Source of the DNA: an uncultured Methanolinea sp.
Lineage (GTDB): Archaea; Halobacteriota; Methanomicrobia; Methanomicrobiales; Methanospirillaceae
NCBI GenBank assembly: GCA_964598545.1
Contig: CAZRCH010000003.1
Coordinates: 1,145 to 65,144 of the forward strand
DNA length: 64,000 nucleotides
Reading direction: 5' to 3'
Numbering within the stretch: the stretch's first letter is position 1; every line of letters starts with the position of its first letter. Below, in pieces: positions 11,597-42,600 of the stretch. The notes beneath the pieces were generated by a model. The model was not told the origin of the DNA. It ran no database searches and saw only the letters and a list, made by a program, of their open reading frames with translations. A program made the translations under genes and the position numbers.

Positions 11597-12646
11597 TTAT
11601 ATGCCTTTTTGGTTCCCGCAGATCGATTCTGAAAACTTCCCCCTGTGAAGCAAGGCCTCAAACTTCCGGGCATTTTCTTCAACGGCCCGAGTAGACGCAT
11701 TCGCATAGCAGTAGCGGCAGAGGTGCATGCAGGTCGAATACTGCCCGATATCCTTGCTCGCGATGCACCCGCATACCCCTCTCTGTCCGGAATCCCTGAG
11801 GTGCCTGAACGGCGGACTGCCGGGCTCCTCCATCTTTTTTGTCTCCGGTTCGCCAAGGAACCGCATGAGTGCCTGATCGTGCCGGAACTCCTCCTTCATC
11901 AGGTCACCGCTGATGCACTGCCCCCTGCTGATGCCGAAGGACGAGAGATCTCGCGCCTCCCCGCAGGCAGAGAGGGAGAGGCCCCATTCTGCATTCATCT
12001 CGGACAGCCCGCTGCAGAAGAGGTCGACCTCCTGGTCAGAGAACTCCCGGACACCAGAAAAACCGCTCTTCGCGAGGTTCCTTTGGACTCTTGGATATTT
12101 TCCAATGTCAATGAAGCTGATCACCAGGCGGCGGGTATGGCGGTGCAGGCGGGAACCGATCTTCCCGACCCTCGAGAGGAGGTCATCTACACCAATAGAA
12201 TCCGAGAGGAGCAGCGGATCGAACCGCCAGACAACCCTTCCGGGCCCGATCATGCCGGATAGGTCAAAAAAAGTCTTCAACCTTTCGGACAGCTTTGGGA
12301 TACCAGGTTCGAGGCCTTCTGATTCGTAGTCGTTCAGGGTGAAGAGGAGATAAGAGGAGTAGCCCATCTCCCCGACTGAGTGCAGATGCGTCATGAACGG
12401 CCGCGGATTTTTGGACCAGAATGCGAATACCCGGGTGTGCGCGAACGAGACATAGCTCCCCCGCCCGGTCCAGGGGCTGATCCAGACCGCGTGTCCCCTC
12501 GCGAGCCGGTGAAGGAACCATTCTCCGAAGAATGCGGGGATGTCCGTCGATCGGCTGGCAGAGACGATCACAGGGGCAATTGCATCACGGCGGATCCCCT
12601 CGTCGTCGACGATCTCCACATGTTTCCAGCCTGCAAACCGCCCCAT
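11597..12646 (-). CDS. DUF1848 family protein (radical-SAM-related, Fe-S Cys cluster at the C-terminus)
   Basis: N-terminal VIVSASRSTDIPAFFGEWF, FWSKNPRP, and C-terminal CGCIASKDIGQYSTCMHLCRYCYAN, all hallmark DUF1848 motifs as I recall them. Confidence 0.7.
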   Translation of the reverse strand: MGRFAGWKHVEIVDDEGIRRDAIAPVIVSASRSTDIPAFFGEWFLHRLARGHAVWISPWTGRGSYVSFAHTRVFAFWSKNPRPFMTHLHSVGEMGYSSYLLFTLNDYESEGLEPGIPKLSERLKTFFDLSGMIGPGRVVWRFDPLLLSDSIGVDDLLSRVGKIGSRLHRHTRRLVISFIDIGKYPRVQRNLAKSGFSGVREFSDQEVDLFCSGLSEMNAEWGLSLSACGEARDLSSFGISRGQCISGDLMKEEFRHDQALMRFLGEPETKKMEEPGSPPFRHLRDSGQRGVCGCIASKDIGQYSTCMHLCRYCYANASTRAVEENARKFEALLHRGKFSESICGNQKGI

Positions 12647-12799
12647 ATGAACCCTTCTATGTGCATAGGCGGGACATGGTTATCAATTCCCCGACTACAC
12701 CAACGGTTCCGGCAATCCATTCTGGCAAGCTATATCAAAAATGAGGGTCAATATCAGTGATTGGAGTTATCCATACCATATAGAGACAAGGGACGGGCT

Positions 12800-14050
12800 A
12801 TGGGAATCCGGTTTTTCCAGGGACAGAAGATCAAGTACGAACATGAATTTTCCCAACTTCGCGAGATCGTCGAGATCCTTCGCAAAGAGTACCCAGCGGA
12901 GCCCATATATCTTCTCACCGGGGTACTCGTGGCAAACGGCCAGATAGACTGTGTCATCCTCACCAAGAACGGACCGCTCGTCCTTGACCTGAAGGCATTC
13001 AACGGTGAGATCGCGGGTGTCGAGAACGGGAACTGGGTGGCAAAGACAAAAGATGGCCCGATTCCCCTCCCCAATCTCTTTCTCCAGGCCAAGATACACC
13101 GGCAGGACTTCATCGACCGGCTGATACCAGTCTGCAGGCAGCATTTTCCGCACATTGGGGAGAAGAACCTGCGAAAGATAGGTTCCTGGCTTTACTTCTG
13201 CCGCGGGAGCACCTATGCGGAGGGGCAGATCGACTTTCGAAAAGTGAAGTGGTTCCGCATCGTCACTGCGGATGATCTCATCCAGAAGATTCGCTTTCTT
13301 GATTCCGGCTACACCTTGCGTATTCAGGACATGGATGCCATAGTCGAGGGACTTGGGCTCAAAGAATACACCTTTGAGGATGGAAGTGCGCGTGTTCCTG
13401 CTGCCCGGAGAATGAGAAGGCCGCTCCTCTCCCGGACCACCCTCATTATCCTCCTCTTAATATTCGGGGTATTTACCATCGGGATATTCGTCGTGGTCAC
13501 GTTTCCTGGCGCCAAAATGGCGGCGGCAAATGCCCTGCAGGGGGTGATCACGCTGGTGGGTGGATGGGTGCACCTCGTCACCCAGGAGACCGTCAAGAAA
13601 AATTCCACCCCTGAAGACAGCCAGCAGGCGATAATCTATCTTAACCGCTTCCGTGTTGCAGAGGGGATGTTTCCCATTGCCTACGACAGCCGGGCATACT
13701 CGCTTGCACTCGCACGGTCAGACGATATGGCAGAGTTCAGGTACCTCAACTATACCAATCCACAGACGGGCTCCTCGGCGCTGGCGCTGAAGCGATGGCA
13801 TGGTTTCTCAGAGAACGAGACCCTCCTCGAGACGCTTTACGGGCAGTGGACGGGGTACACTCCAGGAATCGAGCGCCAGGCAATCGATGCCTGGATCACA
13901 GATCCGGGGAATCGTCAGCGCCTCTTTTTTGCACAGGTATCCGGGGCAATCGCCTGTGCTGACGGGTACTGCTCGTATATCGGGGTCCGCCCGGCCCCAA
14001 TCGTCACAAACGAGAACCTGAATGCGACAGGAAGCCTCGCGGCGGTATGA
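12800..14050 (+). CDS. NERD domain - transmembrane helix - CAP/SCP(PR-1)-like domain fusion protein
   Basis: N-terminal NERD-like block (CVILTKNGPLVLDLKAFNGEI...NW). One TM helix (TLIILLLIFGVFTIGIFVVVTF). C-terminal CAP-like block (YLNRFRVAEGMFPIAYDSR...SENE...WITDPGNRQRLF). An alternative start lies at 12761. Confidence 0.6.
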   Translation: MGIRFFQGQKIKYEHEFSQLREIVEILRKEYPAEPIYLLTGVLVANGQIDCVILTKNGPLVLDLKAFNGEIAGVENGNWVAKTKDGPIPLPNLFLQAKIHRQDFIDRLIPVCRQHFPHIGEKNLRKIGSWLYFCRGSTYAEGQIDFRKVKWFRIVTADDLIQKIRFLDSGYTLRIQDMDAIVEGLGLKEYTFEDGSARVPAARRMRRPLLSRTTLIILLLIFGVFTIGIFVVVTFPGAKMAAANALQGVITLVGGWVHLVTQETVKKNSTPEDSQQAIIYLNRFRVAEGMFPIAYDSRAYSLALARSDDMAEFRYLNYTNPQTGSSALALKRWHGFSENETLLETLYGQWTGYTPGIERQAIDAWITDPGNRQRLFFAQVSGAIACADGYCSYIGVRPAPIVTNENLNATGSLAAV

Positions 14051-29301: not shown

Positions 29302-31137
29302 ATGTTGGACCGCATTAGGAGATTTATCCATACCATGACGACCAGGTTCATTCCTGGCAGGGGGGAGGAAGAGGCAGCCACTCGTTACTCCTGGGAAGAT
29401 TTCCTGTTTTTTATTCCGCTATTCAGGCCATATCTTGGCGCAATCGCCGTTATTCTCTTTTTAACAGTTATTCGTTCATTCTGCATGGCGTTCATCCCGT
29501 ATTCATCAAAGATCCTTATAGATTCGGTCTTTGGGAACAATCCGATCCAGATTCCGGCTTCCCTCGGGGGGATTTTGAGCCAGCCGGTGCATCAGGTCAT
29601 CACCTTCATGGGAAGTTCACTTTTTTCGTTTATTCTTGTAGTCATTATCGTAGGATTGGCCATCGGTGTTTTTGATATCATCCGCACTTACCTGACCATC
29701 AGGGTCAGGGAAGGTTTCATCATATCACTCCGAACCTCCCTTTACACCCACGTATTGTTTGTTCCCATCCGGTTCTTTCGATCCAAAAAGACCGGGGCAA
29801 TCATCTCCCGGATCTCATCGGACACCGCATACCTCCAGGGGATGGTCATCACACAGTTTCCACAGATCACCTCATCGGTGTTTACCCTCCTGTTCACCAT
29901 AGGGGCGATGATCCTCATCTCGCCAAATCTTACACTTGTATTCGCAGGTGTTTTTCCGATTATGGCGGTGATCAACTACCTCATTTCAGGAAAGATACGT
30001 GCATTGACGTATATGGAACTTGAAAGGCTCTCAGAGATCTTTGCCAGGATGGGTGAAGCAATTGCGGGGATAGAGATGGTAAAGAGCCACGGGGCAGAAC
30101 AGAGAGAAGCAGAAGAGATAGCAACCCAGGTCCGTGACCTGGGAGACACCAGGATCGGCAACAGCCTTCTCAGCGCCCTGGGGGAAAAGAGCCGTGCCCT
30201 CTTTGCAGGTGCAGCCTTTCTTATCATTCTCTGGATTGGTGGCAATCAGGTATTGAGCGGTATCATGTCTCTTGGGGATTTCGTGGCATTTATCGCCTTT
30301 CTTCCCATTGTCGGTGCTGCATTGCAATCCCTCCTCTCTTTCCCACTTCAGATGCAGGGAAGCATCGCAGCTGCAGGAAGGATAAAAGACCTCTTCTCAA
30401 TCCTGAAGGAATACGACCCTGCCGACCGGTCCGAGAGACCGAAGGCCGCTATCAGGGGAGAGATTATCTTTGAAAACGTCTCTTTCTCCTATGATCAGCG
30501 GAGAACTGTCCTTCACAACATTTCGTTGCACGTCGGGCAAGGAGAGATTATCGGGATCATCGGTGAGACTGGCGGAGGCAAGACGACGCTCATACAATTG
30601 ATCCTGAGGTTTTATCCTCCCACAAAAGGAAGAATCCTCCTTGACGGGATCGATATTTCGAAAATCCGGCATGACCACATCAGGATGCTGATCTCATTTA
30701 TCTCCCAGGATCTATTCTTGTTTCATGATACCATCAGGAATAATATACGCTATAGTATCCCCCACGCTACTGACGACGAGATCATTGCCGCCGCACAAGC
30801 TGCTCAACTCCATGAGACCATCCAGACGTTTCCTGAAGGGTACGACACTATTGTCGGAGAACGGGGCCTCCAGCTTTCGGCTGGTCAGCGGCAGCGGATC
30901 TCTCTCGCCCGTGCATTTCTCCGCAATGCACCGATCATGATTATGGACGAACCCAGTTCGTCGCTGGATCCGGAAACCGAATACCGGCTCCTTTCTATAC
31001 TCGCTGAAAAAGCACGCGGAAAAACCGTGATTATCATCACGCACCGCGAAAGTATCCTCCCGGTCTGTGATCGGGTTCTTCAGCTGGTCGATGGGGAACT
31101 TGTTGAAAGAAAGAACCATCACCGAAGAATTATCTGA
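29302..31137 (+). CDS. ABC exporter, fused transmembrane + ATPase domains (type I exporter), no N-terminal peptidase domain
   Basis: Six-TM N-terminal half. Walker A GETGGGKTT, signature LSAGQRQR, Walker B IMIMDEPSSSLD, H-loop ITHR. Confidence 0.88.
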   Translation: MLDRIRRFIHTMTTRFIPGRGEEEAATRYSWEDFLFFIPLFRPYLGAIAVILFLTVIRSFCMAFIPYSSKILIDSVFGNNPIQIPASLGGILSQPVHQVITFMGSSLFSFILVVIIVGLAIGVFDIIRTYLTIRVREGFIISLRTSLYTHVLFVPIRFFRSKKTGAIISRISSDTAYLQGMVITQFPQITSSVFTLLFTIGAMILISPNLTLVFAGVFPIMAVINYLISGKIRALTYMELERLSEIFARMGEAIAGIEMVKSHGAEQREAEEIATQVRDLGDTRIGNSLLSALGEKSRALFAGAAFLIILWIGGNQVLSGIMSLGDFVAFIAFLPIVGAALQSLLSFPLQMQGSIAAAGRIKDLFSILKEYDPADRSERPKAAIRGEIIFENVSFSYDQRRTVLHNISLHVGQGEIIGIIGETGGGKTTLIQLILRFYPPTKGRILLDGIDISKIRHDHIRMLISFISQDLFLFHDTIRNNIRYSIPHATDDEIIAAAQAAQLHETIQTFPEGYDTIVGERGLQLSAGQRQRISLARAFLRNAPIMIMDEPSSSLDPETEYRLLSILAEKARGKTVIIITHRESILPVCDRVLQLVDGELVERKNHHRRII

Positions 31138-31446
31138 TTTGAGCCCCCATGTCATCAGCGATGCATTCCGGGATAGGCTTTTTCTGTTACCTGTTCATCA
31201 TTGAAACCCGGGGGCTCGTCATATCTCTCTTTCGTGCAGGGAACCTACCTATGGGAAAACGCAATGTATCTTTCTCTCCTATCCCTGACAAACCGATTCG
31301 GATCGATGGAAAATTCAGACTGTTATCGAACCATCCGAAGAATAAATCAGGATTATTTGATAGGATCAAATCAAAAGAGGATACTCTCTGCGATTCACAG
31401 ATGTTCAAAAAACCCCTCTTATTTGTACTGAAGGTGTTGCCAGCAC

Positions 31447-34047
31447 ATGCCTCCCAATGACCTGACAACGTCCGGACTGGTCGAAAAATGGTCAGCAAGA
31501 AGTGCGGATTCTCCTGCAATTATCGATACATCGGGCATGGTAATCTCATATCGGGATCTTTCCGGAATCATCTCCTCGTGGAAACAGGCACTTATACGCC
31601 AGGGCATCGGTAACGGTTCCCGGGTCGCTGTTGTCCTCCCCAATGGATCGGACATGGCTACAACATTCCTCGGGATTACTGCTGTTGCGACCTGTGCTCC
31701 ATTAAACCCATATTATTCACGTGACGAGTTCTTCTTTTACTTACAGGACTCGGGGTGCGTTGGATTACTGGTCGGCGACAGCTGTCCGATCGCAGCAGAA
31801 GAGGCGGCACAGGATCTGGGAATCCCATGCTACAAGCTCCGACCAATCAAAGAGGTGCTCTCCGGCGTATCCCCGGTTTATGGAGAGGTACACTCACATA
31901 ATCCCATGATACCACCGGTCGTGCCGGATTCACACCCTGAAGACTCCGCCATTATCCTTCATACTTCCGGGACCACAGGGAAGCCTAAAAGGGTGCCGCT
32001 CAGGCAGGATCGCATCTGCAGGAATGCTGCCGCCATTGCAGGAACCCTGCACCTCACTCCTGCAGACCGGTGTCTCAACCTGATGCCGCTCTTTCACGTA
32101 CACGGACTGGTAGGCTGCCTCCTCGCAACCATCTATTCCGGGGGAGCGATCATCACCACCCCGGGCTTTCAGCCGGATAAAATTGCAGGCTGGTTGCGCG
32201 ACCTCGAACCCACCTGGCTTTCCGCAGTCCCTGCAATCCACCATTCACTCCTGCGGGTTGTCGGGAATTATGAAGAAATCACACACCATCTGCGGTTTAT
32301 CCGATCATGTTCGGCCCCGCTCCCCCCATCTCTGCTTCAGGATATGGAGGAGCGATTTAAAGTCCCTGTAATCGAAGCATACGGGATGACGGAGGCATCC
32401 CATCAGATCGCGTCGAACCCACTTCCCCCTGCCTCCCACAAACCCGGTTCGGTCGGTATACCTACCGGCTACACCATCAGGATCCAGGACCGGCGTGGCC
32501 AGGAATGCGATCCCGGCATGCGGGGAGAGGTCTGGATCTGCGGAGAGAATCTCTTCTCCGGATACGAGGATAATCCGGATGCGAATTCCGAAGATTTCAT
32601 GAGCGGTTTCTTCCGCACAGGAGATGAGGGATATGTCGATCCTGAGGGGTATCTGTTTCTCACCGGGCGATTAAAGGAATTGATCAACAAGGGGGGGGAG
32701 AAAGTCGCTCCCCGTGAGATAGAAGAAGTATTCCTGCACTACGCCGGCGTTGACCAGGCTGTCGCATTTGGCATCCCGCACAAAGAACTCGGGGAGGATA
32801 TCGGGCTCATCCTCGTTCCTTCCCCTGGGTACGAACTGGCAATAGCGAATCTCAAGCAGCATGCCCTCCAGCACCTTGCTCATTGGAAAGTCCCCTCAAA
32901 GATTAAAATCATGGACGAGGTTCCAAAAGGCCCGACAGGAAAGGTCAGGAGACGCGATCTTGCAGCGCTCCTATTGGATTTGGACAGGCACCCTGAACCA
33001 TTACCTCGGCATCGCGGGAATCACCCTTGCGAGTGGGAATCCCCTTCCGAACTTGAAGAACAGATCCAGAAAATCTGGGCGGATACACTCCAGAGTGGGC
33101 CTATAGGCCTTGATGAAGACTTCTTTTCTCTCGGGGGATACTCGCTCACTGCCCTGGGAATCACCACAGAACTCGAGCGATCATTTGCGGTCGAGCTCGC
33201 TCCCTCCATCCTCTTCAGTGCGCCTACAATCAGGGAGCTCGCCGAAGTGATAGCAAGGGAAAGATCCGGGGAGCCACTCCCGACTTTGGTCCCGTTCCGG
33301 AAAAAAGGAGACCGGGTCCCCCTCTTTCTCGTCCCGCCAGGGCATGGAAACGCATTTTTCTACCGGGAATTTGCCGCGCTCCTTGGATCGGATCAACCCT
33401 TCTACTCATTCTCCCGGTATCCGATGCCCACAGCTCCCGGCTCTATCGAGGGTATCGCAGCCAGGAATATCGATGAGATCCTTCGGATCAATCCTGAGGG
33501 ACCGTTCCTGGTCGGTGGTTATTGCTTTGGTGCTGTCGTCGCCCTTGAGATGGCTCACCGGTTGCAGGAACGGGGATTGGAAGTGCGGGGCCTGATGATT
33601 ATCGATCCCGACCAACTTCCAAATGGCCCTGATTGGACTTGGGAGCACCCGCAGCAGACCCGGAAAGAGTTCCTTCTATGGCTTATCCGGGGTGGCCCAC
33701 GGCGTTGGTATTGGTTTGTGCCCATTTACATCTCCCGTAAGATCCGCCCACCGCGATTCACTCCTGAAGATCAGAAGCAATTGGAGATCCTCCTCGCCAA
33801 CACCAGAATGCTCCGGGATTACCGCGCCAGGCCTTATAAGGGTCGTGCGATAGTGTTCCACCAGGAGAAGGCTGATAAAACAATGAGAAAACGGTGGGGG
33901 ATCATCCTTGGGGAGTCAGCAAAGTCCATAATTATTCCGGGCACGAAGCACAACGAAGTGCTGGATCGAGGAGGCAGGCGGATAGCGGACCAAATGAGAG
34001 ATTTTTCGAATCTCACAGATAATTATGACCAGATATCTAATCCGTAG
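31447..34047 (+). CDS. stand-alone adenylation - thiolation (carrier) - thioesterase protein (NRPS-like A-T-TE)
   Basis: ANL motifs LHTSGTTGKPKRV, LFHVHGL, EAYGMTEASH, FRTGDEGY...GRLKELINKGGEKV, PKGPTGKVRR. Carrier motif FFSLGGYSLTAL (Ser566, nt 33142-33144). Alpha/beta-hydrolase TE with GGYCFGAVVA (Cys693, nt 33523-33525) and a C-terminal GTKHNEV. Confidence 0.85.
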   Translation: MPPNDLTTSGLVEKWSARSADSPAIIDTSGMVISYRDLSGIISSWKQALIRQGIGNGSRVAVVLPNGSDMATTFLGITAVATCAPLNPYYSRDEFFFYLQDSGCVGLLVGDSCPIAAEEAAQDLGIPCYKLRPIKEVLSGVSPVYGEVHSHNPMIPPVVPDSHPEDSAIILHTSGTTGKPKRVPLRQDRICRNAAAIAGTLHLTPADRCLNLMPLFHVHGLVGCLLATIYSGGAIITTPGFQPDKIAGWLRDLEPTWLSAVPAIHHSLLRVVGNYEEITHHLRFIRSCSAPLPPSLLQDMEERFKVPVIEAYGMTEASHQIASNPLPPASHKPGSVGIPTGYTIRIQDRRGQECDPGMRGEVWICGENLFSGYEDNPDANSEDFMSGFFRTGDEGYVDPEGYLFLTGRLKELINKGGEKVAPREIEEVFLHYAGVDQAVAFGIPHKELGEDIGLILVPSPGYELAIANLKQHALQHLAHWKVPSKIKIMDEVPKGPTGKVRRRDLAALLLDLDRHPEPLPRHRGNHPCEWESPSELEEQIQKIWADTLQSGPIGLDEDFFSLGGYSLTALGITTELERSFAVELAPSILFSAPTIRELAEVIARERSGEPLPTLVPFRKKGDRVPLFLVPPGHGNAFFYREFAALLGSDQPFYSFSRYPMPTAPGSIEGIAARNIDEILRINPEGPFLVGGYCFGAVVALEMAHRLQERGLEVRGLMIIDPDQLPNGPDWTWEHPQQTRKEFLLWLIRGGPRRWYWFVPIYISRKIRPPRFTPEDQKQLEILLANTRMLRDYRARPYKGRAIVFHQEKADKTMRKRWGIILGESAKSIIIPGTKHNEVLDRGGRRIADQMRDFSNLTDNYDQISNP

Positions 34048-34671
34048 TTGTCTGATACCAGAAAAAATTTGAGATCCCGCCATCATTATTCTGCCTCCTT
34101 GCTGTTTTGTATATAGACTAAATTGAGGTTGTTGTCTCGCAAACCTATTCAGTCACAAACCGCCACCGGGGCGTCCCATCGGGGGGTGCGGTGTGAATCG
34201 CATACCAGGGTGGGGAGAAGGGAGCCCCTACAAAATTCATACGATTCGCCAATCCTGCCTATACCAGATAGCGAAGAGCTGTTTTCCTCTTACGCTTTAT
34301 AAAAACCGAAACTTATCGATTTGAGTGTCCATTAAAATAAGGTATTGTGAAGAGATACTGGTTGCAGGAATGGCAGCGGTGACCAGGGAGGGGGTGAATA
34401 GGCCAGGCAGCACTTTGGACCTGTGAAACTGGAACCACTGTGGGATACCCTAATTCATCGGCTGCATTCTTTCCCTCCCTCTACTTTTTAACATATTAAA
34501 AAAGGAAAAATCGATTCATTACAAATACCACGTATGGGAGATATTTAATTCGCAGTCTCGCCTACAAGACCTGCGATATCATTTGACCTATGCATAATAG
34601 ATGGCCTGGTTATTTCCTGGAGAACCAGGGGGCAATATATGAATGCAACAGTGTTGAAAAGATTTCAAGCA

Positions 34672-35145
34672 TTATTTTTGGATTTTTCCGTTCAAATGAA
34701 GGCTCAGCTTATCCCCGATGGCTATCCCATTCCTCTCGCAGTATCCCCCGTTCACTTCGATCAAATACGCAGAAACGGAATCTGACGTAATCATCTCTTT
34801 GCTCATGGGGATAAGGTCCCTTTTAATATCGACAACTGAAAGATCCGGTGAGATTATTATCATATCCAGTGGGATCAGAGTATTCTTCATCCAGAACCCA
34901 ATCTTGTGAGGTTTTTCAAATACAAAGATCATTCCGGAGTGTTCGGGAAGGCTCTTCTGGAACATCAGGCCTTTCGTCTTTTTTTGGGGTGTATCTGCAA
35001 TTTTTAGATTGATTCTTCGGTGATTTCCATGCTGGCTGGAAATGATGGCATAAGGTTGTGTTCGAAAATACCTTCTGTATATCAGAAATAGGCCTATGCT
35101 AATGCCTAGGCATATGAATATGGCGATATCCAAATCCATGAACAA
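34672..35145 (-). CDS. DUF192 family protein with an N-terminal membrane anchor
   Basis: TM helix (IAIFICLGISIGLFLIY), then ADTPQKKTKGLMFQKSLPEHSGMIFVF...IGFWMKNTLIPLDMIIIS, the DUF192 core pattern. Confidence 0.7.
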   Translation of the reverse strand: MFMDLDIAIFICLGISIGLFLIYRRYFRTQPYAIISSQHGNHRRINLKIADTPQKKTKGLMFQKSLPEHSGMIFVFEKPHKIGFWMKNTLIPLDMIIISPDLSVVDIKRDLIPMSKEMITSDSVSAYLIEVNGGYCERNGIAIGDKLSLHLNGKIQK

Positions 35146-35217
35146 CGATCATAGGATATTTACCATCCTATTTTGATAAAGATCTCTTCGAGCCATTATC
35201 CCAGAATAGACCACAAT

Positions 35218-35236
35218 CTATATTAGCCTTTAAAAT
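35218..35236 (+). promoter_or_regulatory. AT-rich TATA-box-like elements upstream of the 56-aa ORF (possible leaderless transcript)
   Basis: ctatatta (35218-35225) and tttaaaat (35229-35236) lie 15-33 nt upstream of ATG 35251. No Shine-Dalgarno-like GGAGG in between. Confidence 0.3.
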
Positions 35237-35250
35237 CTTTTTACATTTAT

Positions 35251-35421
35251 ATGGCATACGAGAAACCCAGACTGATTGATCTGAGTGCGCATCCTGAAAC
35301 AGGACATGGTCAGATGAGGGAATGCAAATCAGGGAGTGGTGCAGCTGGACCCTGTATTGGCGGTTCAGGCCCCGGTGTTGATATTTGTACAGCGGGGCAG
35401 GGCGGATTCAGGCCACCTTAA
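35251..35421 (+). CDS. candidate RiPP precursor peptide, 56 aa, Gly/Cys-rich core with three CxxGxG units
   Basis: My translation: MAYEKPRLIDLSAHPETGHGQMRECKSGSGAAGPCIGGSGPGVDICTAGQGGFRPP*. The ORF is below the 60-aa cutoff of the supplied track. It has a charged N-terminal 'leader' and a Gly-rich C-terminal half with Cys25/35/46. It lies inside the rSAM/PqqD cluster, flanked by AT-rich spacers. Confidence 0.6.
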   Translation: MAYEKPRLIDLSAHPETGHGQMRECKSGSGAAGPCIGGSGPGVDICTAGQGGFRPP

Positions 35422-35471
35422 ATACGTATCTAATATTACAGCGTTAATTTAACAAATTTCAAACATATTCA

Positions 35472-35484
35472 TTTTTTATCTTTT
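35472..35484 (+). terminator. oligo-T tract(s) downstream of the peptide ORF (archaeal-type terminator candidate)
   Basis: attttttatctttt lies about 50 nt after the TAA. Confidence 0.25.
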
Positions 35485-35726
35485 CAGAATTCATATCCAT
35501 TAAATAACTTTTTCAAATTATCATAATAATTAAAGGATAGCGTCTCATTGCCATGGTATATCTCTAACCCAGAATAAGAAATGAAATTCCAGGATCCGAC
35601 AGGAGTCAGGGTGCAAAGAAGAGGTATATGAACGTATACTACTCGTACTAAGGATTGTTCGGAAAAACTATTCATCGAAAAAAGTAGTTCACATAGGAAT
35701 ATCCCTGGAAATTAAACTACATCATT

Positions 35727-36971
35727 ATGGTCACACGACTGATTGATCAAAATAATAAATATATATCGTTCGATCAACCGGAGGTTCCTGGCTTTCTGTT
35801 TACTTCATGCCCCCCACTTCTTTCCCTTATTCAACTATTGAATCGGAATAGATTGCATAATGAACCATTTCCTAATGATTCATGGAATAATATCGTTCAT
35901 TTTGCACAAAAAATGCATTTGACACCCCTTCTCTATTCTACACTTAAATCTAAAGAAAATGTTATTCCTCCTCCTGAAATTTTCATGCAATTGAAATCGT
36001 TCTATCAAGCAAATGCGGCCCGAAATCTTTTTTTCACTCATAGCCTGCTTGTTTTGTTAACCGAATTAGGGAAAAAAAACATACAGGCTATACCATTGAA
36101 AGGGATATATCTTGCCAATTGCGTGTATGATAATCCCTCTGCAAGACAGATGAACGACCTGGACATCATGGTCCGTTGGGAGGATGTTCCAGCTGCGTGG
36201 GGTATCGTTGAGAACCTGGGATTCAAAGCTTCCGACACGTTCCATCTTGATGATACCTATCGTCGGATAAAGCACCATGCGCCTGATTTTCTTCATCCAT
36301 CCGGAACCAGAGCGGAAATTCACTGGAATATTCTCTCTCCGAATGGTGGCAATAGAGGGAAAAGTCTGGAAGACATGATCTGGCTTCACACTATGCCAGG
36401 AGAGATCTTGGGAAAAAAAGCACTTTTTTTAAGACCGGAACTATCCATACTTCATTCTACGATTCATCTGACATTCCTTCACATGTTTAACTCCGGGATC
36501 CGCGATATTTATGATATCGATAATATTCACAGGAAATTCCGTGGTACTATTGACTGGGAATTTCTCATGGCTTTTTCGAAGAGGTTCAGGTTTGAACGGG
36601 CACTACACCTTGTTCTTGCTCTTACCGATATCATCACAGGCTCAGATATTTCAGGTGAATTGAATAAAAATGGCCTTCATCTTGAAATTCCCGATAGCAT
36701 TCTCATTTTTGCGGTGAATGAGATTATACGGGGAGGTTCAAATGACAGCCTTTCAATAAAGTTATTGACATCAAATCCAGGCCCTTTTGTAACAACACGT
36801 GCATTGGTGAACTGGTTTTTCCCCGGTCGTGACGAGATAAGAGACAAATATCATGTACCTCCGGGTCCTTTTGGGGTGTATCGTTGTTATCCAATCCTCA
36901 ATTACTATCGAGTTACCCATTTTGACAAGATAGTACGCGATTTTTCCTTTGGCAGATGGATGAACGGGTGA
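35727..36971 (+). CDS. uncharacterised nucleotidyltransferase family protein (PF14907/NTP_transf_5-like)
   Basis: LKGIYLANCVYDNPSARQMNDLDIMV matches the family hallmark (KG..L...Y.....R...D.D.lV). Followed by the typical HH..D / EIHW region. 414 aa. Confidence 0.7.
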   Translation: MVTRLIDQNNKYISFDQPEVPGFLFTSCPPLLSLIQLLNRNRLHNEPFPNDSWNNIVHFAQKMHLTPLLYSTLKSKENVIPPPEIFMQLKSFYQANAARNLFFTHSLLVLLTELGKKNIQAIPLKGIYLANCVYDNPSARQMNDLDIMVRWEDVPAAWGIVENLGFKASDTFHLDDTYRRIKHHAPDFLHPSGTRAEIHWNILSPNGGNRGKSLEDMIWLHTMPGEILGKKALFLRPELSILHSTIHLTFLHMFNSGIRDIYDIDNIHRKFRGTIDWEFLMAFSKRFRFERALHLVLALTDIITGSDISGELNKNGLHLEIPDSILIFAVNEIIRGGSNDSLSIKLLTSNPGPFVTTRALVNWFFPGRDEIRDKYHVPPGPFGVYRCYPILNYYRVTHFDKIVRDFSFGRWMNG

Positions 36972-37064
36972 CATACAGCTCTTTAAATGAAAGAAGAAAA
37001 AAATATTACCATCAATTTGCTTAAGATATTTCATTCATTTTTTGATCTGTCCTCTCACTCATCA

Positions 37065-38222
37065 TCACCCGAAAAGCCTTGTTCCGGGGAACAGCCCGGC
37101 CTCTGCAGCATCCTCACAGAACTTATGCCCTGCGAGGAGATCGTGATATACATAATAATTCCCTGCAATACACTGACCGAGGCATATGTTCTTCATGAGG
37201 CATCGCGCACAGATACCCTTCAGGCCGTCGGGAAGGTGTTCCCGCAAATCGTTGAGTTCACGGGAATTTTCCCAGATGTCCCTGATATTATCATCTTTTG
37301 CGTGACCGAAACAGAGCTCGGGGACATTCTTTCCTATCCCGCAAAGGGCAAACGTTCCATCGTGAAGCACTCCGAGGATCGTGAAGATACCGCATCCACC
37401 ACAGGCATTGTCCAAATCGAACATTGCCGAGAGCGGAATAAAAGCCTTCGGGATGTTGGTCAACAGGGGAATCCCAATCTCTTGGCGGAGCTCTTTTATG
37501 ATCCAGTTCGACAATGCGATTTGCTCCTGCACCGTCACCGTCTCTCCCTTCTGCTCCATCACCTCCCCCCGCACCGTGGGGGTGATAAAATTGTATTTCA
37601 CCGATGAGGCACCCAGATCGCGGGCATACCGGGCAAGGCTCTCGATTTCATCCCCGTTCCGGCCGGCAACTGCCATGATCACCTGTGGATGGATCCCGGT
37701 CTCGACGAGTGTCCTGACTCCCTGGGACGCCCTCTCGAAGGAGCCGGAGACCCCCCTCATCCACTCGTGATTCTGTTTCATGCCATCGATACTGATCGAG
37801 ATAAAATGGCCCTTGCAGGACTTGATGAGATCCGCGATGTGGGGTGTCATGGCAACCCCGTTGGATTCAATGGAGAGCGCAAGCCCTTCGTCCCTGATAA
37901 AACGAAGGATCGGAATAATGTCCGGGTGGATCAAAGGCTCTCCCCCGGTCAGTTTCACTGTAGTAAGCCCAATCTCTTTTGCCTCCGTCACAATTTTTTT
38001 GAAGAGCGCGAAGGGAAGCGCCTTTTTTGAAGTATCGGCATTCAGGAAGTCGGGGGCAATCCAGCAGTGCCGGCATGCCATGTTGCAGTCCCCTGTGAGG
38101 TAAAAATAGAGAGTCCGGAGTGGAGGTATGATCTTTTTTTCTTCCGGACTCGTGAGAGCATCACTTGCGTCCATACTCATCAGAACAATTAAAGGGCAGG
38201 ATGCCCCCCACGTATATTCCAT
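37065..38222 (-). CDS. radical SAM enzyme with a C-terminal SPASM domain (PqqE-like peptide maturase), copy 2
   Basis: CxxxCxxC = CNMACRHC. GGEPL. SPASM: CGGCG...GTFALCG and CARCLMKNICLGQC (CxxCx5Cx3C). Confidence 0.88.
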   Translation of the reverse strand: MEYTWGASCPLIVLMSMDASDALTSPEEKKIIPPLRTLYFYLTGDCNMACRHCWIAPDFLNADTSKKALPFALFKKIVTEAKEIGLTTVKLTGGEPLIHPDIIPILRFIRDEGLALSIESNGVAMTPHIADLIKSCKGHFISISIDGMKQNHEWMRGVSGSFERASQGVRTLVETGIHPQVIMAVAGRNGDEIESLARYARDLGASSVKYNFITPTVRGEVMEQKGETVTVQEQIALSNWIIKELRQEIGIPLLTNIPKAFIPLSAMFDLDNACGGCGIFTILGVLHDGTFALCGIGKNVPELCFGHAKDDNIRDIWENSRELNDLREHLPDGLKGICARCLMKNICLGQCIAGNYYVYHDLLAGHKFCEDAAEAGLFPGTRLFG

Positions 38223-38268
38223 CTCATCGTATCTGTCATCCGATACAGAGAGTATCCGTCCATGATCT

Positions 38269-39393
38269 TCATTTCTGCGATTCCTTTGGCAGGTTGACGA
38301 TTCGCCCTCCGTGTTCCAGGAACCGTTTCAGGCAGCCGTCTGGGCTTGGGGCAAATACATTCCCGGTTCGGGTATAGCTGCTTGCCGGGCAGTTCCCCGT
38401 GCATGCCATCTGCCATGGACAATCGGCACATTCGGGAAACGTGGAGAGCGGGATTGTATAGCGGTTTCTTAAACGGTTCAATTCAGGATGATCCTGCCAA
38501 ATTCTAAGTAAACGGTCACGATTAATCCGACCCAGTTCGATGTGGGCGAGCATGTTGCAGGGTACAATCACTCCGTCCGGGCGGACAGCGAGCTTGCCCC
38601 ACATGCACCCGCACCCTGCCAGGTAGCCCCTTCCAGGGATTGCCCGCCCTTCGGCTCGTGCCTTCTCCATCTCCTGGAAAGTTCTGCCCAGTGCCAGGGG
38701 ACCGTCTGCAGCACTTATCCGCCCGTGATAGTGTTCTGCCAGGAGAAGGGATCTCATCATCGCATCGCAAAACTCGGCCGGCGTCAACCCGACTTCATCG
38801 GGATTCTCCCGGGCAACTCCAAGGTAACAGGTGCTGTTGGTGGAAATGGAGGGCATGCCAATCTCATCGAGAAGGAGGTGGACAGTATTTTCAAGATCAT
38901 CAAGGTTGTACCGGTGAATGGTAATCCTTGACGTGATGGGAACGTTCGCATCCTGGAGCGTTCGAACTCCCCTCATCGCTGCTGCAAAGGAACCTGGGCC
39001 TCTCAGGGAATCATGCGTCTCGGAGCAGGACCCATCAACCGAGATCTGCACGTAGTCACAGCGGCCGGTAGACGCAATAAATTCAGCGTGTTCGGGACGG
39101 ATGAGCCCCCCGTTTGAGAGGATCGAGAACCGCATGCGGTTTTCCACGACCGCTTCGATGATATCCAGTAAATCATCCCTGATGAATGGTTCCCCGCCTC
39201 CAATACAGACAGACATCACCGCGCAGTCACCGAGTTCCCTGCAAAACGCAGCCCATTCATCAGTGGGGAGTTCAGTTTTGGTATCAGTCGGACTGGTCCT
39301 CTGATAACAATATTTACATTTCAGATTGCATCGAGAGGTGATGTCCAGGTCCATGCTTTTTGGAGACTTCATCAGCTTTCTCGATTCAACCAT
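38269..39393 (-). CDS. radical SAM enzyme with a C-terminal SPASM domain (PqqE-like peptide maturase), copy 1
   Basis: CxxxCxxC = CNLKCKYC. GGGEPF. SPASM: GCGCMWGKLAVRPDGVIVPC and CADCPWQMACTGNC. Confidence 0.88.
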   Translation of the reverse strand: MVESRKLMKSPKSMDLDITSRCNLKCKYCYQRTSPTDTKTELPTDEWAAFCRELGDCAVMSVCIGGGEPFIRDDLLDIIEAVVENRMRFSILSNGGLIRPEHAEFIASTGRCDYVQISVDGSCSETHDSLRGPGSFAAAMRGVRTLQDANVPITSRITIHRYNLDDLENTVHLLLDEIGMPSISTNSTCYLGVARENPDEVGLTPAEFCDAMMRSLLLAEHYHGRISAADGPLALGRTFQEMEKARAEGRAIPGRGYLAGCGCMWGKLAVRPDGVIVPCNMLAHIELGRINRDRLLRIWQDHPELNRLRNRYTIPLSTFPECADCPWQMACTGNCPASSYTRTGNVFAPSPDGCLKRFLEHGGRIVNLPKESQK

Positions 39394-39660
39394 TATTCAC
39401 CGGTCCTATAACCTTCCCACCTGTTCCGTCCATGTCACCGTATTCTCTTCATGAAAGAGAACAATGCTTTTCCTCTTGATAATACGGCATCCGGGTTGTT
39501 GATTACCAAAAATGGAGGGCTATCATATTATAAAGGATCGTATAATTCCAAGGAATAACTCCATTCTTATTCCTGACACGGCATTCACACTGGACTGATA
39601 ACAGGGCTCTGCCGGGAGGGCATGCTCCAATCGTTCCCACTCCCCGCTCAAAAATGCCGA

Positions 39661-40518
39661 TTAAGACAGGTACTCCCAGAATGATCCATCAAGGGCAGCT
39701 CGAAGGATACCACAGGATAAATGTGATACCGCATCACAGCTGCGATGGAAGAGTCCCATATGCCAATCAGCATAGGTATCGTCATTATTTTCTTTTCGAA
39801 GGCAGATGCTGCTCACCTGGACTGCAGACTGATAGAGAAGGGATGCGGCCTGGCCTTTCCCAATGGGGACAGCCTGGTCTTGTTCCCCATGTTCAAGGAA
39901 CCAGATCCCTGTCACCGGAACGGCATACCCTACGTCCCATCTCCGGTCAGACAAATCCCGGATAAGAAAATCACTCCATGTGGGAAGAGGGTGAGCATAA
40001 TAGATTCCTCCGGCCGGTACAAGGAGCACGGCATCATCACACAAGGCATGCCATGGCGGAGGGACACGGCTTGCACATGTGGATTTCCCTGTTGCCCCGG
40101 GAGCTGCGATCATTATTGCCTCCCCATCCCGCTCGAGAAGTGCTGCATGGACGGGAATGCCACCAAACGGCCAGATCGCGAGGTAGAGGGTCTGGATGGC
40201 GAGCATCATCCTCACGATATCCTCTTTTGGGTCCCCGCGTTCGAAGGGAATAATCTCAGTGACGAGATCGGTTCCATCTGTTTTTGCATAGCTGTTCATC
40301 CAGCGCGATCGTGAAGTTACCCAGCATCCACGATGAAATAATGGTGCACCCGAATCCTGGAAACAAAACCTCCAGGAAGGACCAATTCTCCCCCTTTCTA
40401 CTTCACGAAGCATCAGGATGTGTGCAAAGTCCTGCAACCAGTCCTCAAGATCGGCGGAAGCTTCCAATGCCCATCGCTGACCGTTCCGAATGACGAGTTC
40501 GTAGGATTCTCTGGTCAT
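39661..40518 (-). CDS. P-loop HPr-kinase-related protein (SynChlorMet ScmC-like)
   Basis: The Walker A-like loop IAAPGATGKSTCA in the C-terminal half, followed by LCDD..., resembles HprK C-terminal-domain-related proteins found in RiPP clusters. Confidence 0.6.
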   Translation of the reverse strand: MTRESYELVIRNGQRWALEASADLEDWLQDFAHILMLREVERGRIGPSWRFCFQDSGAPLFHRGCWVTSRSRWMNSYAKTDGTDLVTEIIPFERGDPKEDIVRMMLAIQTLYLAIWPFGGIPVHAALLERDGEAIMIAAPGATGKSTCASRVPPPWHALCDDAVLLVPAGGIYYAHPLPTWSDFLIRDLSDRRWDVGYAVPVTGIWFLEHGEQDQAVPIGKGQAASLLYQSAVQVSSICLRKENNDDTYADWHMGLFHRSCDAVSHLSCGILRAALDGSFWEYLS

Positions 40519-40643
40519 GGGGATATCCTGTCTTTTCCCGATTCCTTGAAAATGACCGTTCTATCCTTTCTCATTGCTTTTATAATCATTCCTGTCATGG
40601 GATTCACGACGTGACTGCGAAATGAACTCGAATCCCTTTTCAT
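40515..40643 (-). CDS. possible 42-aa coupled ORF upstream of the HprK-like gene
   Basis: MKRDSSSFRSHVVNPMTGMIIKAMRKDRTVIFKESGKDRISP*. Its TGA overlaps the ATG of the downstream gene (ATGA). No Cys and no recognisable family. Confidence 0.25.
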   Translation of the reverse strand: MKRDSSSFRSHVVNPMTGMIIKAMRKDRTVIFKESGKDRISP

Positions 40644-40690
40644 ACTCGAGAGAGTAATAATTCCGCTATCGGGATCCTCTTCAATAGGGA

Positions 40691-41389
40691 TCAATTACTT
40701 CGTTCACCTCCTGGATAGGTTGGCTGATTCTCATCGATGACTGAGTGTTGCGTCCCTTTGAATGCGCTATTATCACATTCCGCCGGACAATCCGGGAGAT
40801 GCCCCCGATCAATGAACAGCCGGTAGGGTGGGAGAATTGTCCAATCCCGGTCCTTTTCTCCTTTCCACCCGACAAGTCTCCTTCCTAAGTACACCTGGAG
40901 ATCGTATCCTTCATGTGTCTTTACGAGGACCAACCGCTGCTGATACCGCTCCGGAACCATACGGCAAATGAATTTTATCTGTGATATTTTCCAGTAAGGC
41001 TTCGCAAAAAAATGTTCAAACCGTGTGAGTAGTTTTACCCGTTGTTGTGCATATTGGTGATGCCTCATGCCAGCTGATCCCATAGAAACAACCATAGGCC
41101 GATCCTCACGGATACCTCCGGTCACCACTCCCATGATTTCAGAGTGCATGACAGGATGCATGTCATTGAATAGCATGTTGTCACCCCGTGTGCAATACGA
41201 TCCATCAGGGTATTTGATGACGACACGATGAATGATGAGACAACCGGTATTTGCAGGATCACGAAAAATAATCACATCGCCAGGAACAGGTAAACGTTCA
41301 GATACAGGCACCCACTCCAGAATATCATCCTGGAGCAACGCAGGATTCATGCTGGATCCCACATATCTGATCTGCCGGTTACTCTTCAT
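40691..41389 (-). CDS. Sec11/archaeal-type S26 signal-peptidase-like protease lacking a membrane anchor, with a ~130-aa C-terminal extension
   Basis: Motif order GSSMNP ... GDVIIF ... IIHRVV ... TRGDN..FND mirrors archaeal/eukaryal SPase I (SGSMEP / GD / HRV / TKGDNN..D). No hydrophobic N-terminal helix (starts MKSNRQIRYVGSSM). Confidence 0.65.
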   Translation of the reverse strand: MKSNRQIRYVGSSMNPALLQDDILEWVPVSERLPVPGDVIIFRDPANTGCLIIHRVVIKYPDGSYCTRGDNMLFNDMHPVMHSEIMGVVTGGIREDRPMVVSMGSAGMRHHQYAQQRVKLLTRFEHFFAKPYWKISQIKFICRMVPERYQQRLVLVKTHEGYDLQVYLGRRLVGWKGEKDRDWTILPPYRLFIDRGHLPDCPAECDNSAFKGTQHSVIDENQPTYPGGERSN

Positions 41390-41458
41390 GGAAACCGAAA
41401 AATAGTCAGATTTCTCCCGGATAAACCTTTTTATCCCACAATCTCCAATAACGGATCT

Positions 41459-41752
41459 ATGGAATCAAGCAAAACCGCGTCGGGAAGGAGTGTCCTTCGA
41501 AAGAAGGATCAGATAGTACTCAGGGAGGAATTTGATGACTGGGCTCTCCTCTTTGATCCGGATACTGGCATGGTCTGCGGTGTCAATCCTGTCGGCGTGC
41601 AGGCCTGGATGATGATTGACGGGAAACGTACGGTTCAGGATATCAGCAGGATGATCCGGGATTCCTATCCCGATGCACCCGATTCAGTGATTGATGATAT
41701 TACAGATTTTATGAATGAAATAAATGAAAAAGGATATGTCACTTTCATTTGA
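41459..41752 (+). CDS. PqqD-family protein (RiPP recognition element)
   Basis: 97 aa. LFDPDTGMVCGVNPVGVQAWMMIDGKRTVQDISRMI...DDITDFMNEINEKGYV is the canonical PqqD layout. Confidence 0.85.
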   Translation: MESSKTASGRSVLRKKDQIVLREEFDDWALLFDPDTGMVCGVNPVGVQAWMMIDGKRTVQDISRMIRDSYPDAPDSVIDDITDFMNEINEKGYVTFI

Positions 41753-42006: not shown

Positions 42007-42600
42007 ATGAGGGAATATCCAGATGGCCCTGGTGATGAGATGGAATTATATCCTTCCAGGGGTCTGGCCAGGATTTTTCCTAAAGTTGTCCTGCATCGTC
42101 TCAGGTCTTACATCCTTGCATCTTACCTCTCCTGCAATCCTGGGAAAGTACGGCTTTCATACGGACAATATGGACAACCCATTATTGACACTCCTTCCTG
42201 TCCATATACCTTTTCAACGTCTTATTCAGATAAAAATTGGATGCTGGTTATCAGTCACGAAAACCTTGTTGGAGCCGATATTGAGCAAATCAAGGAAAGA
42301 CCAGGACTCAATGCAATTGCACACCGCCTATTTCATGCAGAGGAATTGAGCCATATCAGATTGCTTCCTCGCATTGAACAGATACAGGCATTCTTTCACC
42401 TCTGGACACTCAAAGAAGCATACCTGAAAGGAACCGGGAAAGGGTGGTCGGGCTGGGAATCCCTCCCGGATATGACTCGATGCATCTCCGTGGATTCAAC
42501 AGGTTCTTCGTGGACATGCCCCCGTGTCGAAAAACATCATGCATTCCTGATGACCAGCTCAATGATGTCCAGGGCACTTGTATACGGCACCTCGCGGTAG
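42007..42600 (+). CDS. Sfp-type 4'-phosphopantetheinyl transferase (5' end problematic)
   Basis: LVGADIE (GxDxE) and WTLKEAYLKGTGKG (W..KEA..K). RLRSYILASYL..NPGKVRLSYGQYGQP aligns with HetI-like PPTases. The conserved N-terminal IHLW motif is encoded in frame upstream of ATG 42007 (41917-42006), where no ATG/GTG/TTG exists. Confidence 0.7.
   Translation: MREYPDGPGDEMELYPSRGLARIFPKVVLHRLRSYILASYLSCNPGKVRLSYGQYGQPIIDTPSCPYTFSTSYSDKNWMLVISHENLVGADIEQIKERPGLNAIAHRLFHAEELSHIRLLPRIEQIQAFFHLWTLKEAYLKGTGKGWSGWESLPDMTRCISVDSTGSSWTCPRVEKHHAFLMTSSMMSRALVYGTSR

Follow-up and report, generated by a model that had tools for sequence, protein, structure and literature searches.

A ScmA-like precursor peptide gene beside a SynChlorMet-type radical SAM cassette of a methanogenic archaeon

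We consider here a short open reading frame (ORF) at 35251-35421 on the forward strand of a 64,000-nucleotide stretch of DNA from an uncultured Methanolinea sp. (assembly GCA_964598545.1, contig CAZRCH010000003.1), hereafter the window. Overall, we believe that this ORF is very probably the ScmA-type precursor gene of a SynChlorMet (SCM) cassette, and that its product depends on a recognition element (RRE) for RiPPs (peptides made on the ribosome and altered after translation) and is modified by two radical S-adenosylmethionine (rSAM)/SPASM enzymes, ScmE and ScmF. The ORF is a genuine, conserved protein-coding gene; it always lies beside the ScmD, ScmE and ScmF genes; and its two-part architecture, a leader followed by a core, is common to hundreds of relatives. 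A sequence-only reading had already proposed a precursor for rSAM and PqqD proteins, and that proposal is supported by a match to the ScmA family model TIGR04252 (below its cutoff), by synteny and by the ratio of nonsynonymous to synonymous divergence (dN/dS); what the earlier reading missed is that SynChlorMet cassettes are already catalogued, and that the cluster holds a kinase and peptidase module like that of the linear polyphosphorylated peptides (LPPs). The host of the cassette is a Methanoregulaceae-like methanogen.

A conserved gene under purifying selection

The features that bear directly on the gene are the following.

35251-35421, forward strand: scmA-like precursor peptide gene, 56 codons plus stop (translation, TIGR04252 alignment, dN/dS, synteny, family logos)
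35209-35250, forward strand: conserved block GACCACAATCTATATTA...TTTTTACATTTAT, a putative promoter (three-lineage nucleotide alignment)
35473-35478 and 35481-35484, forward strand: T6 and T4 runs, a candidate archaeal oligo-T terminator
34285-34462, forward strand: decayed second scmA paralog, a pseudogene (comparison with locus L089, 551-718)

Translation of 35251-35421(+) gives MAYEKPRLIDLSAHPETGHGQMRECKSGSGAAGPCIGGSGPGVDICTAGQGGFRPP and a stop codon. The peptide contains only three cysteines, C25, C35 and C46, each of which opens a C-x-x-G-x-G unit, and in both translation and motif positions the sequence-only reading is reproduced exactly. Across the window and 80 other loci, only 3 of 32,427 stop-to-stop segments contain at least three CxxGxG motifs, and when the Gly-rich C-terminal 36 residues are shuffled, three CxxGxG units arise by chance with P = 1.8e-4 (three CxxG units with P = 0.014). 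The GC content of the ORF is 0.54, near the window mean of 0.543, and that of both flanking spacers is 0.305.

Comparison with homologous genes shows the window peptide gene to be under purifying selection. By the Nei-Gojobori method, dN is 0.12 and dS 0.98 against the copy in locus L081 (dN/dS 0.12; 6, 8 and 21 differences at codon positions 1, 2 and 3), and the corresponding values against L089 are 0.28 and 1.08 (dN/dS 0.26; 13, 14 and 23 differences). The closest homologs are peptide P0001 (55 residues, 84% identity, 30 contigs) and P0002 (70% identity over the common part). An identical peptide, P0005, occurs only in Logan assemblies (17 contigs); the NCBI-derived protein set of the 65.7-kb contig carrying ScmE, ScmF and the NTP_transf_5 protein (NTP5) does not include it, which is consistent with the earlier description of the ORF as unlisted.

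Could so short an ORF have arisen by chance in an AT-rich spacer, or mark a non-coding element? It has 56 codons, no Shine-Dalgarno sequence upstream of its ATG, no annotation in the source record and a score under the curated hidden Markov model (HMM) cutoff. Against this stand the dN/dS values of 0.12-0.26, the island of higher GC content, the improbability of the motif under shuffling, synteny in archaea and four bacterial phyla, and a family of 622 members, described below. A search of the peptide region against Rfam returned nothing significant, with one 19-bit snoRNA-like chance match lying outside the ORF, and the non-coding RNA reading was rejected. We regard the chance-ORF explanation as effectively refuted by dN/dS and by the size of the family, and give it next to no weight.

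Conservation does not stop at the start codon. It begins sharply about 43 nt 5' of the ATG (GACCACAATCTATAT...TTTAC.TTTAT-ATG) and continues through the ORF, and the outer flanks have diverged; within this span the block at 35209-35250 is invariant or nearly so in three lineages, and the sequence farther upstream is not retained. The block contains the TATA-like element TATATTA at 35219-35225, which is invariant across the three lineages and has its centre 29 nt 5' of the ATG. The spacing between an archaeal TATA box and the transcription start is well established, and with that usual spacing a TATA element so placed implies that the peptide mRNA is leaderless or nearly so, as far as the sequence can tell, in line with what the sequence-only reading had suggested. 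The T-runs that may serve as terminator start about 52 nt 3' of the stop codon. Both kinds of signal, TATA-like boxes upstream and T-runs downstream, had been pointed out before and are found again here. A 63-residue ORF in the following spacer, at 35484-35675(-), has no family match and is poorly conserved in sequence, and is probably no gene.

The window also holds a dead copy of the gene, which makes a useful contrast to the intact, constrained one at 35251. The pseudogene at 34285-34462 reads S-Y-A-L-stop-K-P-K-L-I-D-L-S-V-H-stop...C-R-N-G-S-G-D-Q-G-G-G-E-stop and is 80% identical in nucleotides to an intact second copy in L089 (551-718); a 6-nt insertion interrupts its YEKP motif, the frame is broken by four stops and a 1-nt deletion, and the second Cys codon is gone. 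It sits between two neighbouring genes introduced below, those for an adenylation-thiolation-thioesterase protein and a DUF192 protein, and has an intact counterpart in both L089 and L090.

The surrounding cassette is of SynChlorMet type

The genes around the peptide gene, in order along the window, are as follows.

29302-31137, forward strand: MsbA-related ATP-binding cassette (ABC) exporter, transmembrane domain plus ATPase (PF00664, PF00005)
31447-34047, forward strand: protein resembling nonribosomal peptide synthetases (NRPS), with FadD-like adenylation, thiolation and thioesterase domains (A-T-TE; Pfam AMP-binding, PP-binding, Thioesterase)
34672-35145, reverse strand: DUF192 protein, divergent neighbour of the peptide gene (PF02643, 101.5 bits)
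35727-36971, forward strand: NTP_transf_5 nucleotidyltransferase, downstream of the peptide gene and read in the same direction (PF14907, 169.5 bits)
37065-38222, reverse strand: ScmF, radical SAM/SPASM (TIGR04251, 449.1 bits, cutoff 400)
38269-39393, reverse strand: ScmE, radical SAM/SPASM, without fused RRE (TIGR04250, 505 bits, cutoff 400)
39661-40518, reverse strand: ScmC, HprK-related P-loop protein, candidate peptide kinase (TIGR04249, 196.5 bits, cutoff 125)
40691-41389, reverse strand: S26 protein resembling signal peptidase I (SpI) of the archaeal type, no membrane anchor, candidate leader peptidase (TIGR02228)
41459-41752, forward strand: ScmD, discrete PqqD-family RRE (PF05402, 43.6 bits, cutoff 23.4)
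42007-42600, forward strand: 4'-phosphopantetheinyl transferase (PPTase; PF01648, 57 bits)

On the strength of these matches, the window cassette is of the SynChlorMet type, catalogued together with a predicted precursor in NCBIfam. ScmE aligns over residues 10-365 to positions 1-357 of the 358 in the TIGR04250 profile, and its relatives in Methanoregulaceae and Methanolinea are named 'SynChlorMet cassette radical SAM/SPASM protein ScmE' by both NCBI and JGI. ScmC also matches HprK_rel_A (E = 4e-6) and shows a Walker-A-like APGATGKST in its translation, and for ScmD, which scores 91.8 bits on TIGR04248 (cutoff 100), that model is by far the best-scoring NCBIfam family. The peptide itself has TIGR04252 (SCM_precur_ScmA) as its sole NCBIfam match, at 20.4 bits and E = 4.6e-4 (cutoff 35), with residues 3-52, from Tyr3 onward, aligned end to end to profile positions 1-47 of 49. 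The peptide gene and those of ScmC, ScmD, ScmE and ScmF all lie inside 35251-41752, and the same clustering recurs in related loci. As the sequence-only reading had it, the peptide ORF points toward the nucleotidyltransferase gene, which is the NTP_transf_5 gene at 35727-36971.

The S26 protein matches TIGR02228 (sigpep_I_arch) at E = 8.9e-11 and 41.9 bits, under the cutoff of 51.85, and the elements GxS13MxP, H54 and D76 are invariant in the homologs from the window, L002 and L004. The ABC protein scores 359 bits against MsbA_rel, the A-T-TE protein 363 bits against a FadD7-like model, and the PPTase matches HetI- and AcpT-like models, all under cutoff. For ScmC, the NTP_transf_5 protein and the S26 protein, searches of solved structures brought no useful match.

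The cluster appears to span the region from the ABC gene at 29302 to the PPTase gene at 42007-42600; outside it lie genes for MarC, GNATs, an AI-2E transporter and MscS. The A-T-TE protein possibly belongs to the same cluster, the PPTase presumably serves it, and its link to the peptide is conjecture: acylation of the peptide by the A-T-TE/PPTase pair is conceivable, or the two may form a separate small pathway. Beside the A-T-TE gene, a 103-residue ORF at 31149-31460(+), with no Pfam or NCBIfam match, overlaps its start by 14 nt, an overlap that suggests translational coupling. A 206-residue ORF at 36987-37607(+) runs antisense to ScmF, has no family match and is probably no gene.

Synteny across archaea and bacteria

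We scanned for ScmE in one genome per species and compared eight orthologous loci with 72 control loci carrying other rSAM/SPASM genes; ScmA-like ORFs were sought by profile and motif search of all six-frame segments, with positions determined by tblastn. ScmA-like ORFs lie beside ScmD-E-F in L001-L006 (directly so), L081-L091 and L093, and occur in none of the 72 control loci. The synteny check that the sequence-only reading had proposed thus comes out in its favour: in archaea and in four phyla of bacteria, orthologous cassettes are accompanied by an ORF that shares the leader and the arrangement of cysteines. Copy number varies, with three ScmA-like ORFs in L003, two in L004 and one each in L001, L002, L005 and L006. 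No peptide ORF was found in L007 or in L008, where the sequence stops at ScmF, and the ScmD-E-F-C cassette of L092 (8714-12326, on a 3.3-Mb bacterial contig) has no ScmA-like ORF within 9 kb on either side.

The gene order of the window recurs in all 11 related archaeal contigs with a close homolog of the peptide. All ten contigs encoding P0001 or P0002 keep the window order of DUF192(-), peptide(+), NTP_transf_5(+), ScmF(-) and ScmE(-), with the A-T-TE gene upstream of the peptide wherever those contigs extend far enough. The DUF192 gene adjoins the peptide gene divergently in L003 and L081-L090 and is constant in Methanoregulaceae-type loci; NTP_transf_5 is kept downstream in L081-L088; and the A-T-TE adjacency is kept in L084, L085, L088 and L089, which are Methanoregulaceae-type contigs. 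Farther afield, ScmE, ScmF, ScmC, S26 and NTP_transf_5 form one co-directional block in L002, the peptide gene directly follows ScmD-E-F in the bacterial loci L005 and L006, and the deltaproteobacterial locus L093 encodes a ScmA-like peptide of 145 residues. In L091, a 3.9-Mb contig of an uncultured Methanospirillum, a 70-residue peptide with three cysteines comes immediately after ScmF; no ScmC, peptidase or NTP transferase was called nearby, and the cassette there may be truncated.

Some of these loci show further features. An IS1634-like transposase abuts the L091 cassette at 11845-13386(-). In L003, ScmF at 618-1675(+) is split over two frames (618-779 and 773-1675), by a frameshift or by an assembly error in this metagenome-assembled genome (MAG). 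Unrelated Cys/Gly-repeat peptides, with CGTGLxCSGGGGQ and CGSSYDCSGGGGK units, lie near other rSAM/SPASM genes in L013 at 775-1059(+) and in L063 at 9037-9705(+), and are probably precursors of different systems.

A large precursor family of leader and repeats

The peptide belongs to a family with more than 600 cluster representatives. A word-indexed profile search returned 38 clusters, those with a name being 'hypothetical' throughout; when 1.84 billion representatives were scanned exhaustively with HMMER, 622 scored at E <= 1e-3, of which 79 reached E <= 1e-10. Among 133 short matches, [Y/F]xxP stands near the N-terminus in 132, and 623 of the 750 cysteines (83%) occur in C-x-x-G. From these sequences we define the family by a leader Y-x-x-P-x-[AIV]-x-D-L-S...[AV]-x-G followed by C-x-x-G repeats 9-14 residues apart. 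The leader logo, built from 177 members with Tyr as position 1, has the following preferences.

Position 1: Y, 98%
Position 4: P, 100%
Position 6: A/I/V, 83%
Position 8: D/N, 90%
Position 9: L, 83%
Position 10: S, 84%
Position 14: A/V, 81%
Position 16: G, 90% (G/A/S, 96%)
Position 17: Q, 57%

The first core Cys falls mostly at positions 22-26 of this logo. Across 242 core cysteines, Gly occupies C+3 in 87%, Ser, Gly or Thr stand at C+4 and C+5, and Ala, Pro or Val at C+6 in 68%. The spacing between cysteines is strictly 9-14 residues, at least 6 residues follow the last Cys, and the number of repeats ranges from 2-11 in free peptides to about 25 in fusions. The window peptide, with 3 units in 56 residues, is at the short extreme of the family.

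The curated TIGR04252 model covers a small corner of this family. Only 8 of 42 family peptides touch it even at E <= 0.1, and close short archaeal relatives score 13-20 bits, from which it follows that the model reaches very little of the family. The window peptide is accordingly a ScmA homolog by position and architecture, and below the curated score for membership.

The leader, the discrete RRE and the link to LPPs

Neither rSAM enzyme appears to carry an RRE of its own. The Pfam Radical_SAM domain starts at residue 18 of ScmE and residue 42 of ScmF, and in alignments with SkfB, CteB and SuiB, ScmE begins at its residue ~10, opposite their residues ~96-124; these domain starts and this offset argue that neither ScmE nor ScmF has a fused RRE like that of those enzymes. 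We assign the leader to ScmD, which is a standalone PqqD-family protein. By sequence, the solved structures nearest to ScmD are those of TbiB1, a lasso RRE, and of 9x8z_B, a PqqD family protein; matches to 'Cake' designer proteins have no significant stretch and were set aside as spurious.

An experimentally tested model for the handling of such a leader is the LPP system of Bacillota (PMC13381572, Nat Commun 2026). LPP leaders follow the consensus YxxPxVLxHQxIxFET, in which the YxxP motif is essential for binding of a discrete RRE, and this RRE presents the leader to an HprK-like kinase, which polyphosphorylates core Ser3, and to an SpI-like peptidase, LppS (triad S29/H68/D93), which cuts 16 residues past the Tyr and cuts unphosphorylated precursor poorly (PMC13381572). 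More generally, Y-x-x-P-x-[L/V/I] is the motif bound by discrete PqqD-like RREs in lasso and LPP systems (PMC13381572). The resemblance of the YEKPxLxxL-type start to other leaders, which the sequence-only reading offered tentatively, was thus right in substance.

Natural gene fusions provide independent genomic evidence, at the level of sequence, that RRE, leader and peptidase work together. The exhaustive search recovered four fusions, P0076, P0126, P0142 and P0185 (395-514 residues), each with an N-terminal PqqD-like RRE, a Y-x-P-P-Q-V-x-D-F-G leader next to it and finally a tract of about 25 C-x-x-G-[ST]-x-P units. In a Desulfuromonadaceae MAG (L004, 12140-13006(+)), an SpI::PqqD fusion lies between ScmF and two precursor genes and is followed by an HprK/ScmC-like gene.

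By analogy with LppS, we predict the boundary between leader and core to lie after G18, because the family motif [A/V]14-x-G16 forms a small-x-small site in the LPP register. The predicted leader would comprise codons 1-18 (M1-G18, 35251-35304), and the predicted core would be H19-P56 (38 residues, 35305-35418).

A proposed pathway and the chemistry of the core

The general pathway can be sketched from these parts. Consider a cell in which the peptide gene is transcribed from its own putative TATA promoter as a leaderless mRNA. The segment Y3-E-K-P6-R-L-I-D-L-S12 would bind the standalone PqqD-family RRE ScmD, which would present the peptide to ScmE and ScmF, both acting on the three C-x-x-G-x-G units. 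The most likely modification would be one Cys-derived thioether ring per unit, with an acceptor 3-6 residues downstream. The HprK-like ScmC, whose kinase activity is predicted, may phosphorylate a core Ser, as shown in LPPs; the soluble SpI-like enzyme would then cut after G18 (small-x-small, 16 residues past Tyr) to release the core H19-P56, and the MsbA-like ABC pump would export the product.

The modification step is put forward tentatively. Both ScmE and ScmF carry a CxxxCxxC motif (at residue 46 in ScmF) along with all seven cysteines of the SPASM signature; the pair share only about 25% identity and always co-occur. Among their nearest solved relatives, at similarly low scores, are the thioether formers SkfB and CteB, two C-C formers, PqqE and SuiB, and also BlsE, a decarboxylase. 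The core is otherwise built of small residues, and no reactive side chain but that of Cys is invariant in it; to our knowledge, Cys serves as thioether donor in every characterised SPASM-modified core with Cys-rich repeats (sactipeptides, ranthipeptides and NxxC peptides). By analogy, a Cys-derived thioether ring in each C-x-x-G repeat is thus a plausible outcome, and we stop a little short of calling it probable.

A serious competitor keeps the same precursor and has ScmE and ScmF install a non-thioether change on the C-x-x-G units: C-C or C-O crosslinks, epimerisation, conversion of the Cys or of the invariant Gly, and perhaps two different reactions per repeat. The constant pairing of two enzymes so dissimilar, also where there is one precursor only, suggests that each has a step of its own; the solved relatives include PqqE, SuiB and BlsE; and the best-conserved partner of the Cys is the Gly at +3 (87%), a residue that, as far as we know, is not a typical thioether acceptor. 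The invariance of Cys alone among reactive side chains, and the thioether precedents, speak the other way, and we consider this alternative possible and somewhat improbable.

At the same time, several observations weigh against our overall account of the peptide as an SCM precursor and its maturation. The peptide misses the curated ScmA cutoff (20.4 versus 35 bits), so the model leaves it unnamed, and no canonical ScmA passing TIGR04252 was found near a named ScmE (the L091 and L093 peptides miss the model, and L092 has no peptide). The residue at -3 of the predicted cut site is Glu in the window peptide, where the family typically has Ala or Val, and the core has no Ser at +3, unlike LPPs. 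The thioether proposal rests solely on analogy with Cys-rich SPASM substrates, and the solved relatives are mixed; the kinase role of ScmC is a candidate one, again by analogy. Finally, we found no publication on SynChlorMet, TIGR04250-52 or ScmE/ScmF, and no transcript, peptide or product reported for any member; two surveys of rSAM RiPPs make no mention of SynChlorMet, and our literature search for rSAM enzymes together with HPr kinase or signal peptidase yielded nothing beyond the LPP paper, in which no rSAM features (PMC13381572).

Implications

The cassette type has been in TIGRFAMs/NCBIfam for years, and metagenomes contain thousands of ScmE orthologs. The SCM substrate family is nearly invisible to annotation, with named members called 'hypothetical' and a curated ScmA model that reaches none of those tested. 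What is new here is the definition of the precursor family by its leader logo, C-x-x-G repeat rule and predicted cut site, and the tie to the experimentally dissected LPP system, which makes an orphan rSAM pair directly testable in biochemical terms. Methanogenic archaea are thereby flagged as hosts of a multi-enzyme RiPP pathway.

One rather doubtful possibility is that SCM peptides constitute a distinct RiPP class, combining an LPP/lasso-type leader module with two dissimilar rSAM/SPASM enzymes and new chemistry on C-x-x-G. Such chemistry could, for example, take the form of a four-residue sactionine ring from Cys to the Gly C-alpha together with a second modification, and the Methanoregulaceae product might additionally be acylated by the FadD-like A-T-TE/PPTase pair. 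If this were true, no radical-SAM RiPP, and possibly no lipopeptide, would have been defined from a methanogen before it.

Comparison with known systems

The accessory genes of the window match those of LPPs. An SpI-like peptidase, a discrete RRE and an HprK-like protein are encoded in the window cluster together with an NTP transferase and an exporter of MsbA-like type, with the qualification that the PF14907 protein is equated with LppN, the 'uncharacterised NTP transferase', by assumption, since PF14907 is unnamed in the main text of PMC13381572. The leader opens with YxxPx[hydrophobic] and has a cleavage-type site 16 residues past the Tyr with a small -1 residue, the precursors vary in length and come in one to three copies, and the S13/H54/D76 spacing of the window S26 protein, whose peptidase activity is predicted, resembles the S29/H68/D93 of LppS. 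In contrast, the window cassette has two integral radical SAM/SPASM enzymes, whereas none is mentioned for LPPs; its core is a Cys/Gly repeat, where LPPs have a variable linear peptide that bears Ser at +3; the distal HQxIxFET of LPP leaders is replaced by D-L-S...[AV]-x-G; and SCM hosts are archaea and Gram-negative bacteria.

This likeness raises the alternative that the peptide is a substrate of the LPP-like module only, giving a linear phosphorylated peptide, and that the rSAM enzymes act elsewhere, for example on a product of the A-T-TE protein. The presence of all five LPP core gene types, and a leader and cut-site register that match those of LPPs (PMC13381572), fit such a scheme. It is difficult to reconcile with the bacterial loci, where the peptide gene directly follows ScmD-E-F (L005, L006) and the A-T-TE gene is absent, or with a curated cassette defined around the rSAM pair, and it leaves the conserved C-x-x-G repeats without a role. 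We consider it very unlikely, and continue to favour a precursor modified by ScmE and ScmF.

Lasso peptides of the paeninodin type have a Y/WxxP leader, a discrete PqqD-like RRE, and HprK-like kinase and nucleotidyltransferase tailoring genes (PMC13381572). The window system shares the YxxP leader, the discrete RRE and genes of both tailoring types, and ScmD resembles the lasso RRE TbiB1, but the window core has no lasso features. A lasso cluster was excluded as a candidate, with no macrolactam synthase or B2 transglutaminase-like cysteine protease among the large ORFs scanned at ~27-46 kb.

The ranthipeptides and sactipeptides (PapB/freyrasin, CteB/SCIFF, SkfB, AlbA) likewise combine rSAM/SPASM maturases with Cys-bearing cores, and freyrasin-type precursors carry repeated short Cys motifs. 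SCM systems differ in that the RRE is a separate protein and not an N-terminal domain, that each cassette has two dissimilar rSAMs, and that the partner of the Cys is Gly at +3 and not Asp, Glu or Thr. The AlbA, StsB, PapB and SkfB models score 80-107 bits on the window rSAMs, against cutoffs of 300-850.

Pyrroloquinoline quinone (PQQ) and mycofactocin biosynthesis (PqqA/D/E; MftA/B/C) resemble the window in using a small peptide, a PqqD-family chaperone that stands alone and a PqqE-like rSAM/SPASM enzyme lacking a fused RRE. It could be argued from this that the product stays in the cell as a cofactor or metal-binding peptide (PQQ-, mycofactocin- or metallothionein-like) and is not exported: a discrete PqqD with a PqqE-like rSAM is the PQQ/mycofactocin architecture, both systems are among the secondary NCBIfam matches, and Cys/Gly-rich peptides are able to bind metals. 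The PqqE and MftC models, however, score well under cutoff on the window rSAMs, the SCM core is repeat-based, and the cassette has a second rSAM and genes for a peptidase, a kinase-like protein and an exporter. The MsbA-like exporter argues against an intracellular product, a core of 2 to more than 25 repeats fits repeat-wise modification and not a single excised cofactor, and multi-copy, readily pseudogenised precursors are typical of natural products; a cofactor or metal-binding role is accordingly very unlikely, and a modified, exported peptide remains our preferred reading.

The closest counterpart is SynChlorMet itself, as described in NCBIfam. The ScmA, ScmC, ScmD, ScmE and ScmF types are all clustered in the window, and ScmC, ScmE and ScmF pass their cutoffs, whereas the peptide and ScmD score below theirs; the window adds the SpI-like peptidase, NTP_transf_5, DUF192, the MsbA-like exporter, the A-T-TE protein and the PPTase. 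The kind of cassette is thus already known in databases, and the window peptide is an unannotated, sub-threshold addition to its ScmA precursor family.

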